This document shows, one piece after another, positions 24,200-30,568 of a stretch of DNA of 43,554 bases. The notes below the pieces were generated by a model that worked only from the letters and a program-made list of their open reading frames with translations, made no database searches and was not told the origin of the DNA. Where the stretch lies: positions 1 to 43,554 of the IMG/VR virus record IMGVR_UViG_3300032272_000026, one strand, 5' to 3'. This DNA is from a virus. Its lineage: Duplodnaviria; Caudoviricetes. The translations under genes and the position numbers were made by a program. Within the stretch, counting starts at the first letter, position 1; every line of letters begins with the position of its first letter.

Positions 24200-24229
24200 T
24201 TTTATTTTTCCTTTAAATATTAGCTTCGT
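24197..24229. repeat. 33-bp direct repeat, copy 2
   Basis: Identical to 23847-23879; encodes the end of the DUF3987-like gene plus RBS and ATG. Confidence 0.95.
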
Positions 24230-25490
24230 GATAGTGTTTGACTCGAGGGATATATCTACGAAAGCCTGGTGTTTGAGATCCTGTGGGATCAACCGAAATC
24301 CAGCCCGCACCTACCATACTATCGACTAAGTGCGGGATTTTATTCGAGGCTGTTTTGTTGATAAAGTAGTTCTTCAAAAGCTGCTCAGTTATAGGCTTCT
24401 TTTTATCTCTCGTATATTTTAAGATTAAAAACTCCATAGCCCCATCTTGCAGCACACCATCTGGAGATGACGACATTTCCTTGAAGATTTCTGGCATCAT
24501 ATCTTCAGTAGCCAGAAGCATATGCTTTGCTTGCTCGTAGTCGTCCAGGGTGATTATCATCTCTGTTGAACGAGCTGCCGAAAAAACCATGGCTAGTTTG
24601 ATAACGTGGATTGTTCTCCTGGGGTTATAATTTTGAAGCCTAGCGTTTGTTGGTACAGGTGGATTGCCTGATAAGTGCCAATTGTCCACGGCACGAACAG
24701 CCTCATCTTCCCAGGTAAATTCTCCATATAAAGCTAGGAGTTCTTGTAGGCGATCATGGATTTCTTTCTTAAGCGGTAGGTTTTTCTGTGCTGAGGAAAA
24801 AAGAGATATAGTAACCCGAGCACCTCCATAAACCATGATGATGCGTGAGGTTAGGCCCATGCCATACGCAGCTTCAGGAAGTAACTCAGCAAGGTATTTC
24901 GGCTGAGTGCCGCCGATTAAATTCAATCCTGGTTTGCGTACAACCTCCATCCCACCGCCGCGAGTTCGTCCTTCGTATGATTCCCTACAATCGTAGAGAT
25001 CATTCAAAGTATTGATAAATTCAAAGTCGTGTGAAGCTATAAGTGTGCCTAACTCAGGGGCGGCTAAGTTGGCAAAGTTTATCTCAATACGCTTGCCTGG
25101 AGTCTCGATAGTTTTCGGAAATTCCATAAGTTGATCGATGAACGCCGCCTTGGTCAATGCCTGAGGGGCTGTATTTAGCCCTGGGTTGCCTGGTTTATCC
25201 TCAAGCTTGCGCCAAAAGCGGTCAATTTCATTAATAGCCATGGACTTACCCACTCCAGGGTTGCCCACCAGAAAAATAAACATGTTTGGGTATAGACGAG
25301 AATTGGTAATTTCTACCCAAGTTCGGCGCTCAAGCACTCCAGCGATCATCGATACTGCGGCCCACTCCCTGAAAATTTTAGGTGAGGGAATGCCGTCTGT
25401 GTACTCGAGAAACTTCCCGATCAAGCAACCCGGTCGGCGGGAATTCAGTGCGGTTTCTTCTGTCAAAGCCGTTATATTCGATGAGCCCAT
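24213..25490 (-). CDS. DUF3987-like P-loop ATPase (putative replicative helicase)
   Basis: LYPNMFIFLVGNPGVGKS Walker A; L.DLYD, GGTQP and GLTSRII motifs; start uncertain, overlaps the polymerase 3' end. Confidence 0.75.
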   Translation of the reverse strand: MGSSNITALTEETALNSRRPGCLIGKFLEYTDGIPSPKIFREWAAVSMIAGVLERRTWVEITNSRLYPNMFIFLVGNPGVGKSMAINEIDRFWRKLEDKPGNPGLNTAPQALTKAAFIDQLMEFPKTIETPGKRIEINFANLAAPELGTLIASHDFEFINTLNDLYDCRESYEGRTRGGGMEVVRKPGLNLIGGTQPKYLAELLPEAAYGMGLTSRIIMVYGGARVTISLFSSAQKNLPLKKEIHDRLQELLALYGEFTWEDEAVRAVDNWHLSGNPPVPTNARLQNYNPRRTIHVIKLAMVFSAARSTEMIITLDDYEQAKHMLLATEDMMPEIFKEMSSSPDGVLQDGAMEFLILKYTRDKKKPITEQLLKNYFINKTASNKIPHLVDSMVGAGWISVDPTGSQTPGFRRYIPRVKHYHEANI

Positions 25491-26958
25491 CAGGATTGTC
25501 TCCGGGTTCTTTTTTGTTTAGTTTAGCCCAAGTCCAGCCTACTTCTACTGAATTTGGTATTTGAAAGTCTCGAACCTCAGAAGTAATTTCGCTTCTTACT
25601 GGTATACTGAGTGTCTTAAAAAGATCAAGAAGTGTTTGGAGAATTTCAGCCTCATGAGATTCTTGATATTGAATAACAATAGCATCATGTACTTGACCCA
25701 AAAGTTGAAAGGCAGGTAAAGAATTGATTGTATAATCAGGTTCAAGCTTCCACGCCATGTGCAATTGTGTGTTTAAATAATCAGCAACAAGTGATTGCGG
25801 ATTATGCGCAATGGCTTCTCGTAAAGTGGTATCGTCTCCTGGGCGACCAAAGAAATGGCGCTTTCTTGAAAAAGGTGTAATGAGAGATCGCTCAGTCTGA
25901 AGCTTGAAAGCAACGTTTTGATGCCATAGGGGAATTTCTGGAAAAGCTTCAAAATAAGCACGTTGGAAATTTTCCATTACCCTAGAAGACACTTTAAGTA
26001 TATTGGCCATTGAAGAGGGAAGGCCATAATAATTAGTGCCATGACCACCTCGTTTTGCCATGTCTCGGTACGAAAACTGTCTGTAATAAAGCGCCCCAGC
26101 TAACTTTTTATCTTTAAAAATATCTCCAGTCCATGGTAAATCTTGTTGCCACACCATACGACAAACTGTTGTATGCAAGTCTTCAGATTCACAAGCATCA
26201 AGATAATTGCTAAGATTTGAAATTGCCCAGGCCAAAATACCCACACCACGAGACTCAGCTTGTTCAAGATCGATGTAAGCCAGTTTATACCCCGCGTCAG
26301 CGCAAAATATTCGCTTAACATCATTGGTAAGATTTTGATAGTTTGCCCCTCGGTCGAAAATATTTTTGCTGGAAGACCACCGCCCAGTTTCTGTTCCGCA
26401 TACATTGAAACCAAACCGCATTCGCCTGTCTTCATCTACACCATATTTTAACGCCCCTAAAAGTTTGGTAAGATCTCGAAGCTTTAGAATGCAGTTAATA
26501 AACGGGCGGGCATGTAGATAGATTGATAATTTTTCTAAAGCTTCTCTGTTTGTAGTTTTTACTTTTTTACCTTTTTCAAATTTAAATTCTTCAGGGAGTC
26601 CGAGGAAAGTGTAGAAAAAAGCAATAAGCTGCTTTGGTGAATTTGGGTTGAGAAGAGTTCCCGAACAACCTATGGATAGTTTGTTTAATACATATTGAAC
26701 TTTTTTCTGCTTGGCCTCAAGCTCATAAATAAGCTCATTTTTGATATTATCATTGATACGCATTCCGCGTAACATCATCTCAAGCGCAGGGGCAGAAACT
26801 GACTGAACAAATTGGTAAGTTTTAAGAGCTTCCGGGGTGAGGCTTTCTCGAAGTCCGTCGAAAACTTCACATGTGATGGCAGTATCTAAGCCATTATAAA
26901 CATAAAGGGTTTCTGCTTTGTTAAGCTCGGGAAGAGCTTCGGTGTGGAATATTTTCAT
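25378..26958 (-). CDS. polA: Family A DNA polymerase, polymerase half (begins with the ExoIII motif)
   Basis: TETGRWSS, motif A DLEQAESR, motif B RDMAKRGGHGTNYY, motif C QVHDAI; YNGLD near the N-terminus; TAATG-coupled start 26958. Confidence 0.92.
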   Translation of the reverse strand: MKIFHTEALPELNKAETLYVYNGLDTAITCEVFDGLRESLTPEALKTYQFVQSVSAPALEMMLRGMRINDNIKNELIYELEAKQKKVQYVLNKLSIGCSGTLLNPNSPKQLIAFFYTFLGLPEEFKFEKGKKVKTTNREALEKLSIYLHARPFINCILKLRDLTKLLGALKYGVDEDRRMRFGFNVCGTETGRWSSSKNIFDRGANYQNLTNDVKRIFCADAGYKLAYIDLEQAESRGVGILAWAISNLSNYLDACESEDLHTTVCRMVWQQDLPWTGDIFKDKKLAGALYYRQFSYRDMAKRGGHGTNYYGLPSSMANILKVSSRVMENFQRAYFEAFPEIPLWHQNVAFKLQTERSLITPFSRKRHFFGRPGDDTTLREAIAHNPQSLVADYLNTQLHMAWKLEPDYTINSLPAFQLLGQVHDAIVIQYQESHEAEILQTLLDLFKTLSIPVRSEITSEVRDFQIPNSVEVGWTWAKLNKKEPGDNPDGLIEYNGFDRRNRTEFPPTGLLDREVSRVHRRHSLT

Positions 26959-27218
26959 TAGCGTAAACCTCGAAAGGGTACAAAAGCTTTTTCTCTCCAA
27001 CCATTAAATACGTCCCAATCTCGCATGGTATTTTCTTTCTTGACAAACATTATAGAATGAAACTCTACCTTGTTAATTTTTATTGCTGAGTAGGCATTGA
27101 AAGGGTTGGTCGGACAACGAGCCTTAATTGCATCAAATTTAACCCAACAAGGTTTAGATGCTCTTGCAGGCCATTTTCGCCAACAACCGCCCTCATGTGT
27201 TGTATAGAATATTTTCAC
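26958..27218 (-). CDS. Small basic hypothetical protein (paralog B) between the polymerase halves
   Basis: Likely GTG start 27218 (GTGA overlap, GGAG RBS); G.W..WP...KP, IN, W....GW. Confidence 0.65.
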   Translation of the reverse strand: MKIFYTTHEGGCWRKWPARASKPCWVKFDAIKARCPTNPFNAYSAIKINKVEFHSIMFVKKENTMRDWDVFNGWREKAFVPFRGLR

Positions 27219-27448
27219 GTCAAAACACTCCAACCCGTTGTGCTGTTCCAGTTTTTAGTCCCTTTTGATGTAGTAAAAGAAAGAGCAAAGACTCGAATAC
27301 CGTTTATCATAGTGTATTCTTTTTCTTTGCTTGATTTTAAGATAAGCTTTTTTTGAATCGGTTTTGCGATATTGGTAGGCCACTCGTACCAGGGGCCATC
27401 TTTGCGAGCTTGAAAAGAACACAAAAGTTTTGGTTTAGTTCTGGTCAT
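27215..27448 (-). CDS. Small basic hypothetical protein (paralog A) between the polymerase halves
   Basis: ATG directly after the UDG-exo stop; G.W..WP...KP, IN, W....GW. Confidence 0.65.
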   Translation of the reverse strand: MTRTKPKLLCSFQARKDGPWYEWPTNIAKPIQKKLILKSSKEKEYTMINGIRVFALSFTTSKGTKNWNSTTGWSVLT

Positions 27449-27449
27449 T

Positions 27450-28559
27450 TTAGGCGTCCTTTTTAGTTTCGGTATCGTGAGAAGTTCGCATAGATTTCCA
27501 ACTAGGTTCATTCGTATAAATTGAACCTAGGAAACCTAAACCTTTTTTCAATTCTGGCTGTATGGAATGCGCCAGAATCATACTGTCGTAATAAAACCCT
27601 TGGGTTTTTATTCCTATAGTGCTGTAGAGGTATTGAACATCATAGAGGCCATTTTGAGCTAGTTTAGGAATTGGACTCTCAAGGATTCTTTTAATGACCC
27701 GCCAAGCATAGGCTTCAAGACGAAAAATTCTCCAATAAGAAAAATCAGGTTCAAGCTCATTCCAAATGGGGATAACATAAGAACTGTATTTATCTGGCGA
27801 AAAGGAAATTGAGGTTATTTGACTTAGCTTTGTCTCAATGTCAATTGATAGAAAATCACACTCCATTAAATTTATTTCAAATTGTTCCAAATCCTCGCTT
27901 GTTTCGGCAATGTAAATGGTCCGCTTTGGTCGGGTTATTTCGGAAGTTTCAGCTTCTTTTTTCGCTTTCATCAGGTCTGCGATTACGACCGGGCGATCAT
28001 GCCACCTTCTTAAAATGTATGAAGGGTGGTATGTCGGCAAGACTTTGAGTCCCGGGAGTAAGGAAGACTCAATTATAGTGCCCCGCAAGGTTGTGATTTT
28101 ATGATTACCGAGAAGTGCCCAGCAGGCTGTAGCTCCTAGAGCTATTACAATATTAGGCTTGATTTGGTCAAGCTCGGCCCTAAGACGTTCTAGGCAGGTA
28201 AGCTTTTTAGGGTGTAGATACTTACCAGCTTTGATTGGTGGAAATTTATAAGAACTTCCCAGGTGCTTAGAGGCTTCGGTTTTGTTAGAGCACCAGGAAT
28301 CAAGTTTGTTCCCTGGGGGCTGTTCTAAGAAAACTGTAGTGACATGAAACGAAGTCTGTTTCCACCATTTTAAAAGGGAGAAGGGGCCGCTTTTAGGCTC
28401 CTCGATGATCAATCCTGCGTCGAATAATTGTGCTATTAATTCTTTCCCTGAAGCACCTAGAAAGGGAAAACCCAGGTTTGCGTCCTGCTTGCCAGGGGCC
28501 TCGCCGACAATGGCTATTTTTGCCCCCGGTCGAAAATATGGCTGGATTGATTTAGTCAT
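27450..28559 (-). CDS. Uracil-DNA glycosylase (family 4-like) fused to the N-terminal part of a 3'-5' proofreading exonuclease
   Basis: IVGEAPG, PF.GASG, ALGATA and TYHPSY (UDG); SIDIET (ExoI), AQNGLYD (ExoII), DSMILAH. Confidence 0.88.
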   Translation of the reverse strand: MTKSIQPYFRPGAKIAIVGEAPGKQDANLGFPFLGASGKELIAQLFDAGLIIEEPKSGPFSLLKWWKQTSFHVTTVFLEQPPGNKLDSWCSNKTEASKHLGSSYKFPPIKAGKYLHPKKLTCLERLRAELDQIKPNIVIALGATACWALLGNHKITTLRGTIIESSLLPGLKVLPTYHPSYILRRWHDRPVVIADLMKAKKEAETSEITRPKRTIYIAETSEDLEQFEINLMECDFLSIDIETKLSQITSISFSPDKYSSYVIPIWNELEPDFSYWRIFRLEAYAWRVIKRILESPIPKLAQNGLYDVQYLYSTIGIKTQGFYYDSMILAHSIQPELKKGLGFLGSIYTNEPSWKSMRTSHDTETKKDA

Positions 28560-28628
28560 TTTATAAAGTTATCCTCTACCCAATCTAAATGGATTGAAAA
28601 TCTGTGTGATTATATTTGAATGGCAAAA

Positions 28629-28850
28629 CTACCATTTTCCGTCTTCCTTGATGGACGCTTCTTTTTTTACCCAGAGATGGGTCAACATGAACGCCCAGGG
28701 GGACTCGGCCCGGAGGGTGTCAATTTCACCTTTAGCCCCTTCCTTTGTTTCATGAGGCGTTCCACTGATTTTCGAATCCTTGAACCGGCCTGTATCCACT
28801 CTGGAACCTGGAAGATGAGTTGGGCCAAGCATGGCGAAATAAACTGTCAC
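28629..28850 (-). CDS. Hypothetical protein
   Basis: 73 aa ORF filling a gap in the - strand operon; GTG start. Confidence 0.5.
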   Translation of the reverse strand: MTVYFAMLGPTHLPGSRVDTGRFKDSKISGTPHETKEGAKGEIDTLRAESPWAFMLTHLWVKKEASIKEDGKW

Positions 28851-28907
28851 GATTTGTTCCCTTCAACGGACAGGAGGGTATCTTCAGCGATCTCCGCTTC
28901 GGCTCGA

Positions 28908-30275
28908 TTATTCAGTTCCATGCGTTATCCCTTTTTGTGAAACTACTTTTTTAACCCACTCGGTATTTAGTCGACGATTAGCCGCTTCGGCATATTCTGG
29001 ATTTAGTTCTAAACCTTTGATGGTCTTAGGGGAAAAATCAAGCGCCGCAATTAGGGCATTCCCACTACCTGCGGTTGGATCAAGGACTGACGTATGCTCA
29101 TCAATAAAAAGGCGAAAGAAATGCTTTAACATCGGCACTGGTTTTTCTGATATGTGATTAGCTTTTGTTGATGGGGCAGAATACGCATTGCTTACCATGT
29201 TAACAGTTTTACGATTGCCCCTGGACAAAATCAAGGCGGTTTCATAAACGCGCCTGGGTTGACGTTGGGCGTCCGGGCATATTCCTGCGTTGTCAGATTT
29301 TGTCCAGATTAGCGGGAAAGGTTGTACAGTAAGTTCAGTGTTGTTCTGGAAAAATTCCATGGTCTCGGTATAGTACGACATAGAAAACCAAAACATGATG
29401 TGAGCTTGTGGGAATAAAATTCTGTCGAGGTTGTTCCGCAAGGTCTCGCATAAGGCCCAATAAACATCTGGAGAGTCTTCATAGGCTCCATGGCGGGCAC
29501 TACCTCCGAGATCGCTTTTTTGGTGGTTAATGCCATAGGGGAAATCGCAATGAAGAAATGAAAAAGGGCGTCCCTTGTATGAGTTAGCCCAGGAAATGAA
29601 ATCCGTGCAAGTTATAGCATCAATGGGTTTGGTTGGGATAGATTCTATAGGTGCTGTATCTTCTTGGTCGTTTTCCTGGGAAGAATTTAAAATAATATTC
29701 GCTTTGGGAATATATACTAAGTTTTCAACTTCAACCTCGATGAGACGCTCCCGGCGCTTGCTTTCCAGATTCCAAGCTGCGTTTAAATTGGAGCATGCAA
29801 GAAGCTTTTCATCCCCGGGGTTCTCAAGAAGGGCTCTGCCTACAGTTATCCATCTTGATATAGAACCTTGAGGAAGTCCTAAAGAATCAGCGGTTTTGCT
29901 AAGTGTCCACTCGGTAGAATCTGCAAAAGCTCGATCGCTGAATTGCACAATTGCAAGGGCTTGATCAGTCCAGGTAAGTTGTTCTCGTTTGATGTTTTCT
30001 TCGAGTTCAATTTGATGAATGTCCTGGGGGGTCAGGTTATCGCGGAAAGTGGCTGCTATCTTAGACCATTTTAATTTTTTGGCGGCGGTCAGGCGGCGTT
30101 CTCCTGCAATAAGAGTCCATTCACCGGGGACGTCAACAAAATCCCCTACGATAATTGGAGCAAGCTGACCTAGACGGAACATTGAATCCGCCAAAATATC
30201 AATATTGGTTAAGTCTTTACGCTGGCGATTTTCTTTAATGTGAATTTTTTTTATGTCGATAAAAGATGTTTTCAT
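28908..30275 (-). CDS. ParB-like N-terminal domain fused to an N4-C/N6-A (beta-class) DNA methyltransferase
   Basis: RQRK, LIAGERRL.A and ELEENIKR (ParB); DFPYG (motif IV variant), H.SEKP and VLDPTAGSG (motif I); ATGA-coupled start 30275. Confidence 0.85.
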   Translation of the reverse strand: MKTSFIDIKKIHIKENRQRKDLTNIDILADSMFRLGQLAPIIVGDFVDVPGEWTLIAGERRLTAAKKLKWSKIAATFRDNLTPQDIHQIELEENIKREQLTWTDQALAIVQFSDRAFADSTEWTLSKTADSLGLPQGSISRWITVGRALLENPGDEKLLACSNLNAAWNLESKRRERLIEVEVENLVYIPKANIILNSSQENDQEDTAPIESIPTKPIDAITCTDFISWANSYKGRPFSFLHCDFPYGINHQKSDLGGSARHGAYEDSPDVYWALCETLRNNLDRILFPQAHIMFWFSMSYYTETMEFFQNNTELTVQPFPLIWTKSDNAGICPDAQRQPRRVYETALILSRGNRKTVNMVSNAYSAPSTKANHISEKPVPMLKHFFRLFIDEHTSVLDPTAGSGNALIAALDFSPKTIKGLELNPEYAEAANRRLNTEWVKKVVSQKGITHGTE

Positions 30276-30568
30276 TTTAAAAGACCTCTGGATACACATT
30301 CTTCATGAAGCATATGACAAGAAATAATAGAGAAGTTATCGCACTGGGGGCAAATACCGTTAACTGCCTGAGCAGTTACAGGGGCTGTAGCCCCACAGCC
30401 TGGATCGCAGCAGATACCCGCAACGAGAGGTGCGGAAAGATTAGCTGCAATTAAGGCTGCTATATCAGGGCTAAATTTACCCATTGACCCTAAGACAAAA
30501 CCTTCGTTCAAGGCTAAGTCTTCGAGGAGTTCTTTTGCATCGATGTCATTGTAAAATGCTCGGGGCAT
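30272..30568 (-). CDS. Zn-ribbon hypothetical protein
   Basis: CCDPGC...CPQC; GGAG RBS. Confidence 0.7.
   Translation of the reverse strand: MPRAFYNDIDAKELLEDLALNEGFVLGSMGKFSPDIAALIAANLSAPLVAGICCDPGCGATAPVTAQAVNGICPQCDNFSIISCHMLHEECVSRGLLK

Follow-up and report, generated by a model that had tools for sequence, protein, structure and literature searches.

Can the proofreading site of a DNA polymerase be divided between two genes and still be assembled? This question is raised by a stretch of 43,554 nucleotides (nt), the whole of IMG/VR virus record IMGVR_UViG_3300032272_000026 (Duplodnaviria; Caudoviricetes; completeness estimate 92%), hereafter the window. On its minus strand one gene (U) encodes a UDG (uracil-DNA glycosylase) domain and the exonuclease motifs ExoI and ExoII, while a second gene (P), downstream of it, opens with ExoIII and continues into a family A DNA polymerase (PolA). 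From comparison of sequences across the lineage, we consider it likely that the two proteins are made separately and assemble into a replicative heterodimer, with the proofreading site shared by both chains. The parts concerned are as follows (aa, amino acids).

27450..28559, minus strand: subunit U, a UDG domain with the family 4 fold, followed by three quarters (the N-terminal part) of a 3'-5' exonuclease domain, 369 aa (Pfam/PHROG, AlphaFold2, fold matches)
27939..28559, minus strand: UDG domain, U residues 1-207, with E20, F33 and H178 kept and no Fe-S cysteine motif (alignment, fold match)
27912..27926, minus strand: first exonuclease strand, K212-Y216, predicted antiparallel partner of the P N-terminal strand (covariation ladder; model strand at 214-217)
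27834..27842, minus strand: ExoI, D240-I-E242 (DIET at 240-243), invariant in 118/118 homologs
27639..27653, minus strand: ExoII, N303-G-L-Y-D307, with D307 in 118/118 homologs
27495..27500, minus strand: W354-K355, the final conserved exonuclease motif ahead of the cut (alignment; at most 2 residues from Klenow F473)
27450..27464, minus strand: conserved C-terminal K-[RK]-D-[DE]-stop tail, whose codons double as the ribosome-binding site of the next gene (211/233 junctions)
25378..26958, minus strand: subunit P, a new N-terminal strand, the ExoIII helix and a complete PolA polymerase domain, 526 aa, ATG at 26958 (Pfam, AlphaFold2, Klenow fold)
26938..26958, minus strand: conserved N-terminal M-x-[IV]-[IV]-x-T segment, predicted docking strand (loose motif in 215/233 junctions; position counts; covariation)
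26884..26898, minus strand: ExoIII, Y21-N-G-L-D25 on helix 14-37 (Y and D in 219/219 loci; helix in the AlphaFold2 model)

An earlier note, made from the sequence alone, had described this division of motifs, and coordinates and Pfam matches agree with it: U runs from 28559 to 27450 and stops after ExoII, and P follows a 491-nt gap, with 20 residues preceding its YNGLD at 21-25. Residues 7-188 of U match Pfam UDG (E 9.6e-19) and residues 217-350 match DNA_pol_A_exo1, covering profile positions 3-129 of 173 only; P residues 92-455 match DNA_pol_A. The two proteins match successive parts of a single PHROG polymerase profile, 479-793 and then 801-1246. The stop codon of U lies 14 residues past W354-K355; the role of Klenow F473, and the Klenow numbering and residue roles by which the cut is placed, are assumed here. 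ExoI (DxE), ExoII (D) and ExoIII (YxxxD) thus form a full DEDDy set spread over two genes.

Single-chain AlphaFold2 models are confident for each half. That of U (mean predicted local distance difference test, pLDDT, 93.8; disordered C-terminal tail) shows the UDG fold in residues 1-207 (Z 19.7, root-mean-square deviation, rmsd, 1.8 over 161 residues against 1ui1); its top Foldseek match is PDB 9qhs, and Klenow matches too. The model of P (pLDDT 93.4) resembles Klenow 1kfs (Z 31.1, rmsd 3.0 over 389 residues). With D230 in motif A and D425 in motif C, P carries the family A motifs A, B and C and the TGR motif, R193, D230, R298, K302, Y310, H424 and D425 each being present in 119/119 homologs. 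The earlier description of both halves as intact therefore stands for the catalytic exonuclease and polymerase residues, but not for the UDG motif residues of the window, some of which are replaced (see below). Two further residues of the polymerase domain are of note. Position 306 (26041-26043, minus strand), equivalent to Klenow F762 (B3), is His in 119/119 split homologs and 39/43 fused ones, and the third residue of motif C is Ala in 118/119 split homologs. A literature search for His762 and PolA returned no relevant paper; the invariant His bears on PolA-762 typing of viromes.

The split is real, old and widespread in its lineage. A set of 388 loci, the window included, came from six locus scans and three reference records, each scan contributing its best 80 loci by likeness to split-form alignments; LUZ24, phiEco32, S-SBP1 and records of the window's own genome were left out. 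Of these loci, 345 are split between ExoII and ExoIII, three are fused and 40 have one half only. Where both halves are present, the split point is thus conserved at this loop in 345 of 348 homologous loci, the three fused cases being two references and one distant match, and 233 unique junctions remain after removal of duplicates. All split loci keep the same gene order, and the halves never lie more than 2762 nt apart. Among 50,697 phage records, the cultured relative closest to the window is Caulobacter phage Kuura, a podophage (41% and 37% identity), in which the same two genes flank two unrelated open reading frames (ORFs).

Fused relatives help to place the cut. When a profile of 43 of them is aligned to the Klenow fragment, the cut falls in the loop that joins the F473 region to Y497. 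Fused forms were found at 37% identity or less in a search among longer proteins, against 41-50% for the listed split forms; the nearest are proteins of 760-860 aa, such as that of Microcystis phage Mel-JY34. In FastTree trees of each half, built from 81 dereplicated split and 36 fused sequences (9 of 45 fused ones were left out for a mismatching junction pattern), one edge parts split from fused with support of 0.998 and 1.0. As PolA is single-chain in general, we infer that the ancestral state was fused. Scanning viral contigs with single-protein patterns gave no matches, so that alignments were needed, and in the alignment of the fused family no stretch was conserved enough to support a locus scan. 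Species genomes, when scanned, yielded 12 loci, all on contigs of metagenome-assembled genomes. One contig of run X1 spans the region of the window with zero differences, but possibly comes from the same source DNA and is hence not independent. Some loci may be divided further: the match to the U half is spread over more than one ORF in L145 and L153, as in a possible three-piece polymerase, in L061:4252-5713 the P half is interrupted by a frame change, and in L248 and L253 the P match spans about 2.3 kb, suggesting an insert.

Do the two chains meet? Of 219 loci, with a median polymerase identity of 45%, 216 retain every one of D240, E242, D307 and W354 on U and Y21 and D25 on P; the other three carry single substitutions (D to E, W to F and W to H). 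We know of no use for an ExoIII helix without ExoI and ExoII. Inter-chain covariation supports contact between the halves. Gaussian direct coupling analysis (DCA) was applied to the 219 locus-paired alignments (effective number of sequences, Neff, 175; all of U against P residues 1-240), leaving out 14 of the 233 junctions that were partial or doubly split, and replaced plain mutual information with average product correction, in which clade signal was dominant and shuffles reached z 6.9-8.6. The top inter-chain pairs, S252-T26 (z 15.0), S332-V51, Y324-Q52, L300-F33, I215-A27, K212-E7 and V262-G23, all link U's exonuclease core with residues 1-52 of P. A block set by outside domain borders and covering 18% of the map holds 7/7 of these and 8/10 of the top ten (binomial p 4e-5, with pairs treated as independent), and ten shuffles placed 0-3 of their top ten in a tighter block. 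The control, U against the neighbouring DUF3987 gene with its shared phylogeny, gave no pair above z 9, versus five for U and P over the same 167 loci. Some pairs look compensatory, with an acid or His facing Arg or Lys at 324-52 and Gly-Cys alternating with Ser-Ser at 252-26, and an antiparallel ladder of U 212-216 with P 1-7 ranks first among 61,103 placements of its shape. The 219 rows are all split forms, so that the signal reflects constraint that has persisted since the fission.

Several points count against reading these data as a shared site born of one fission. The split-to-fused ratio is not a census, since loci were chosen by likeness to split-form alignments, and the direction of the trees is not fixed, as they are unrooted. 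The tighter block and the ladder shape were defined after the map had been seen; an Neff of this size is low for DCA, and shuffled maps reach z 7.5-10.3, so that single pairs below z of about 10 are unreliable. Whole-gene distances show no gene-wide sign of tight U-P co-evolution: rho is 0.52-0.54 for U and P, against 0.53-0.73 for either half with a neighbouring gene and 0.66-0.73 for two halves of P. Finally, the first seven residues of P form no strand in the single-chain model (pLDDT 74). A related idea, that the K-x-D-E tail of U docks on P, found no reliable support and was set aside: its best couplings reach z of at most 7.4, the tail is disordered, and its conservation is partly that of a ribosome-binding site and start codon.

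Taken with the conserved split and the catalytic residues on both chains, the covariation favours what the earlier note had proposed, namely that two separately translated subunits likely rebuild the exonuclease site in trans; that the pair is obligate, as the note also had it, would be a further step. A single-chain UDG-Exo-Pol ancestor would have undergone a single old fission in a surface loop equivalent to Klenow 474-496. P would then fold its ExoIII helix (Y21, D25) back over the beta-sheet of U (D240, E242, D307, W354), with the new N-terminal strand of P (1-7) pairing antiparallel with U strand 212-216 and substituting for the lost covalent link. Small unrelated genes may later have used the space between the two as a slot for insertion. 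Carried on U, the UDG domain would be placed on the incoming template by analogy with SP15-like polymerases.

In the window, the gap between the two genes is filled by two ORFs, and the junctions along U, ORF1, ORF2 and P read TAA-A-ATG, GTGA and TAATG, each start having its own Shine-Dalgarno-like motif (AAGGA, GGAG and GAGG).

27215..27448, minus strand: inserted ORF1, 77 aa, no family, variable cargo (Pfam/PHROG, ESM Atlas)
26958..27218, minus strand: inserted ORF2, 86 aa, GTG start, no family; begins MKIFYT, where the polymerase begins MKIFHT (sequence)
27049..27076, minus strand: putative sigma-70-like site, 11/12, inside ORF2 and 90 nt ahead of the P start; window-specific (sequence score)

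ESM Atlas gave no usable family for ORF1 or ORF2, and the gap of the window has no nucleotide relative among the loci compared. Eleven identical bases stand at the starts of ORF2 and P (27218-27202 and 26958-26942, minus strand), a pattern seen in 1/113 junctions; this shared start is most likely a relic of insertion and possibly a decoy. The sigma-70-like site is one of only two scoring 11/12 in 43.5 kb (27076-27049 and 41450, both minus strand), and 1 of 300 gap shuffles scored as high.

Among the rival readings, the most probable is that the halves do interact while P also copies DNA alone, so that proofreading and uracil scanning depend on the amount of U. The polymerase domain of P is complete and folds confidently on its own, a promoter-like site stands just ahead of P in the window, and the distances of the two genes are loosely coupled. 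Against this, a conserved promoter for P was rejected, such sites lying ahead of P in 3/199 relatives versus 2.2 expected; gene order and proximity are fixed in every split locus; and PolAs need the exonuclease domain for stability, according to Czernecki et al. (PMC10201439). We therefore regard it as improbable. A bolder version, in which P runs without its editor and the subunit ratio, tuned by the promoter-like site and a decoy ORF2, would set the phage mutation rate, draws on one window-specific site and one duplicated N-terminus (MKIFYT and MKIFHT), and we find it improbable as well. In that version ORF2, opening with a copy of P's docking strand, might compete for U.

We think it very unlikely that the halves end up as one chain after all, whether by RNA splicing, ribosomal frameshift, readthrough, bypass or protein trans-splicing. 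Such a reading could appeal to the 29/233 junctions that are adjacent or overlapping (gap -4 to 3 nt), to the HNH-like ORF present in about 10/113 gaps, and to the group I introns common in phage polymerase genes (PMC10580990). The gaps, however, range from -4 to 2762 nt (median 448), those above 3 nt are spread over the three frames (74/65/65), and the 228 ORFs in the first 113 junctions fall into 149 families, including DUF7768, DUF1937, DUF7220, HAD and HNH-like proteins. Rfam gave no match at E<=1 in positions 25000-29000 of the window and none in 13 further loci chosen for HNH-like or long gaps (including 10 HNH-like ones). The absence of intein ends and homing endonucleases that the earlier note had reported also holds: Pfam and PHROGs revealed no intein or endonuclease family on the window's halves or gap ORFs, and no intein residues occur at either end of the junction. 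The mix of frames, the unrelated cargo of the gaps and the lack of an intron match make splicing or recoding unlikely. The commonest cargo is DUF7768, in 26/113 loci (gaps of L129, L036, L120 and their relatives); DUF1937/DUF4406 occurs in 9/113, and a weak nucleoside deoxyribosyltransferase match in 3.

The termini at the cut likewise look like those of finished proteins. They are in register with stop and start, with Lys at -4 in 101/113 junctions and Thr at +6 in 92/113, and the span from W-K to the ExoIII Tyr, tail plus head, has a median of 36 residues versus 18 in 22 measurable fused proteins. Conserved, stop- and start-anchored ends that add about 18 residues to the fused linker fit two finished proteins rather than a precursor. 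Conservation of the U tail is partly at the DNA level, since a ribosome-binding site and start codon are encoded there: AGG makes up 30/55 Arg codons in the tail versus 9% in the gene body, and an ATG lies between 8 nt before and 3 nt after the U stop in 104/113 junctions.

A purely structural association with dead proofreading, as in the CCPol and MP proteins, seems to us just as remote. CCPol retains three exonuclease helices without the remaining domain, an arrangement like that of P (PMC10201439). Here, by contrast, the exonuclease residues persist in 216/219 loci at the polymerase divergence given above, whereas those of the UDG drift (188/219). Recent breakage, a pseudogene or an assembly error, which the two inserted ORFs without relatives among the compared loci might suggest, is refuted to the point of near-impossibility by the conserved cut, found in 233 distinct junctions and in a plaque-forming phage, and the genome contains no second copy of U.

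What the attached UDG domain does is a separate matter. Its fold is of family 4, with motif A GE[AG]PG and motif B HP. Family 4 UDGs characteristically have 4Fe-4S cysteines; here none of 119 homologs has an N-terminal CxxC, and no Cys is among the common residues of the C84-equivalent column. The family otherwise keeps the residues equivalent to T. thermophilus E41, E47, F54, N80 and H155, whose roles we take as known and whose numbering comes from the alignment, with all five present in 188/219 loci. The window has D26 for the Glu47 equivalent, T75 for Asn80 and Q80 for Arg85, a combination found in 1/219 loci, and so departs from the family 4 catalytic and uracil-pocket set at two of the five residues (D26, T75); Kuura deviates too. 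In L007, L069, L133, L143, L155 and L099, motif A and the Asn position are largely lost and the exonuclease residues are retained. The UDG of SP15-like single-chain enzymes removes uracil from the template in front of the fork (PMC13697223), and that of N4-like enzymes is described as inactive and may aid processivity (PMC10201439). By analogy, the UDG of most relatives probably still excises uracil, as in the SP15-like case, and that of the window is probably weakened or structural, as in the N4-like case. The coupling to uracil sensing put forward in the earlier note is weakened in this genome by the Asp, Thr and Gln that replace the Glu47, Asn80 and Arg85 equivalents, while most loci keep the five residues.

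The same note had envisaged a nucleotide-quality or modified-base system built with MazG-like and methyltransferase genes, which we set aside. Among the 40 + 12 window ORFs we found no thymidylate-synthase, 5-hydroxymethyl-dUTP or base-modification family, in a record estimated to be 92% complete and with many ORFs that have no family. The MazG-like gene (PHROG E 2.6e-12) has a homolog in 1/113 loci, where flanks are often too short to reach it, and the methylase gene adjoins fused polymerases as well. Kuura DNA was sequenced by standard Illumina methods and gives the expected fragments with BamHI (PMC9959647), which is weak evidence, coming from a relative.

How does this arrangement compare with known systems? 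Phage PolA fission into two genes, with an AlphaFold2-predicted heterodimer, has been described in S-SBP1-like cyanophages (PMC10201439). There the phage is T7-like, the split is described as recent, there is no UDG, and gp15 itself carries ExoIII (YCIQD), so that the exonuclease site is on one chain. In the present lineage, which is deep, the cut runs through the site and new segments at the termini are conserved. LUZ24 (gp25) and phiEco32 and other kuraviruses (gp74) likewise have exonuclease and polymerase genes apart, with several unrelated genes between (PMC9965538). In both, ExoIII is on the exonuclease gene (YCLQD in gp25, YCEQD in gp74) and a UDG domain is lacking. Our genes are thus separate as in all three of these types, but the cut does not follow ExoIII, which lies on the polymerase gene.

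Single-chain UDG-PolAs (SPO1-like, N4-like and the SP15-like phiLo/YerA41; Missoury et al. 2026, PMC13697223) share the order UDG-Exo-Pol. The SP15-like enzymes are single chains of more than 1100 aa with large inserts, in genomes with hypermodified T (PMC13697223). The present enzyme consists of two chains that together make up about 900 aa, has His at the position of F762, and comes from a genome in which we found no base-modification genes; at 369 + 526 aa, against 1142 aa for 9qhs, it does not share their layout of a single chain with Insert 1, Insert 2 and a C-terminal domain. In the family B polymerase of phiKZ, catalytic aspartates are on both subunits, DNAP-N and DNAP-C, which form a stable 1:1 complex; its cut falls in the palm, and DNAP-N carries all four acidic residues of the exonuclease (PMC13648687, preprint). 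CCPol-MP of staphylococcal mobile elements resembles P in having a polymerase chain with only the last exonuclease helices, where the partner binds, but MP is unrelated and, as described, no complementary exonuclease fragment was found (PMC10201439), while here that fragment is encoded upstream with its residues intact. In MEP401-type phages the cut is inside the polymerase domain (PMC10580990). Neither a group I intron nor a split intein fits the locus, there being no Rfam and no intein Pfam match. Published examples exist of split phage polymerases, of UDG-PolA fusions and, in phiKZ, of an active site that two subunits share, and the arrangement is not categorically new. In the full texts searched, a set short of most subscription papers, we found neither this lineage described nor a PolA with its cut between ExoII and ExoIII, although UDG-PolA lists in the supplements of PMC10201439 and PMC13697223 could include members; the Kuura paper, in the sections drawn on here, mentions only 'a DNA polymerase' (PMC9959647).

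Elsewhere in the genome, the plus strand carries an SU10-type portal and capsid, and the minus-strand replication module comprises a PD-(D/E)XK nuclease, a Sak4-like ATPase, a ParB-methylase, the two polymerase halves and a DUF3987 helicase/primase-like gene (Pfam/PHROG). Two neighbours of the polymerase genes are:

24213..25490, minus strand: DUF3987 helicase/primase-like gene, context outside the split (Pfam/PHROG)
28908-30299, minus strand: ParB N-terminal domain fused to an N6/N4 DNA methylase (Pfam)

The DUF3987 gene was found in 78/78 loci with sufficient downstream DNA; in the window its start overlaps the 3' end of P (25378-25490) by 113 nt, and the tail of P is of low confidence in the AlphaFold2 model. 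The ParB-methylase is upstream in 63/80 loci with sufficient upstream DNA, and since the two fused reference polymerases have it alongside too, it has no tie to the split. The palindromes GGCC, CGCG, GGATCC and CGATCG are under-represented across the whole window, consistent with restriction avoidance.

For annotation, these results call for a correction, as the upstream half is labelled 'hypothetical' (Kuura_029) or 'uracil-DNA glycosylase', and the downstream half looks as if it had no exonuclease. The lineage has a cultured member in Kuura, so that the proposal is immediately testable. The cut would offer a natural split point, and the P N-terminus a candidate docking strand, for parting synthesis from editing in a PolA. 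If the shared site is real, it would be a natural DnaQ-type proofreading site made from two gene products and kept across a deep and widespread phage lineage.

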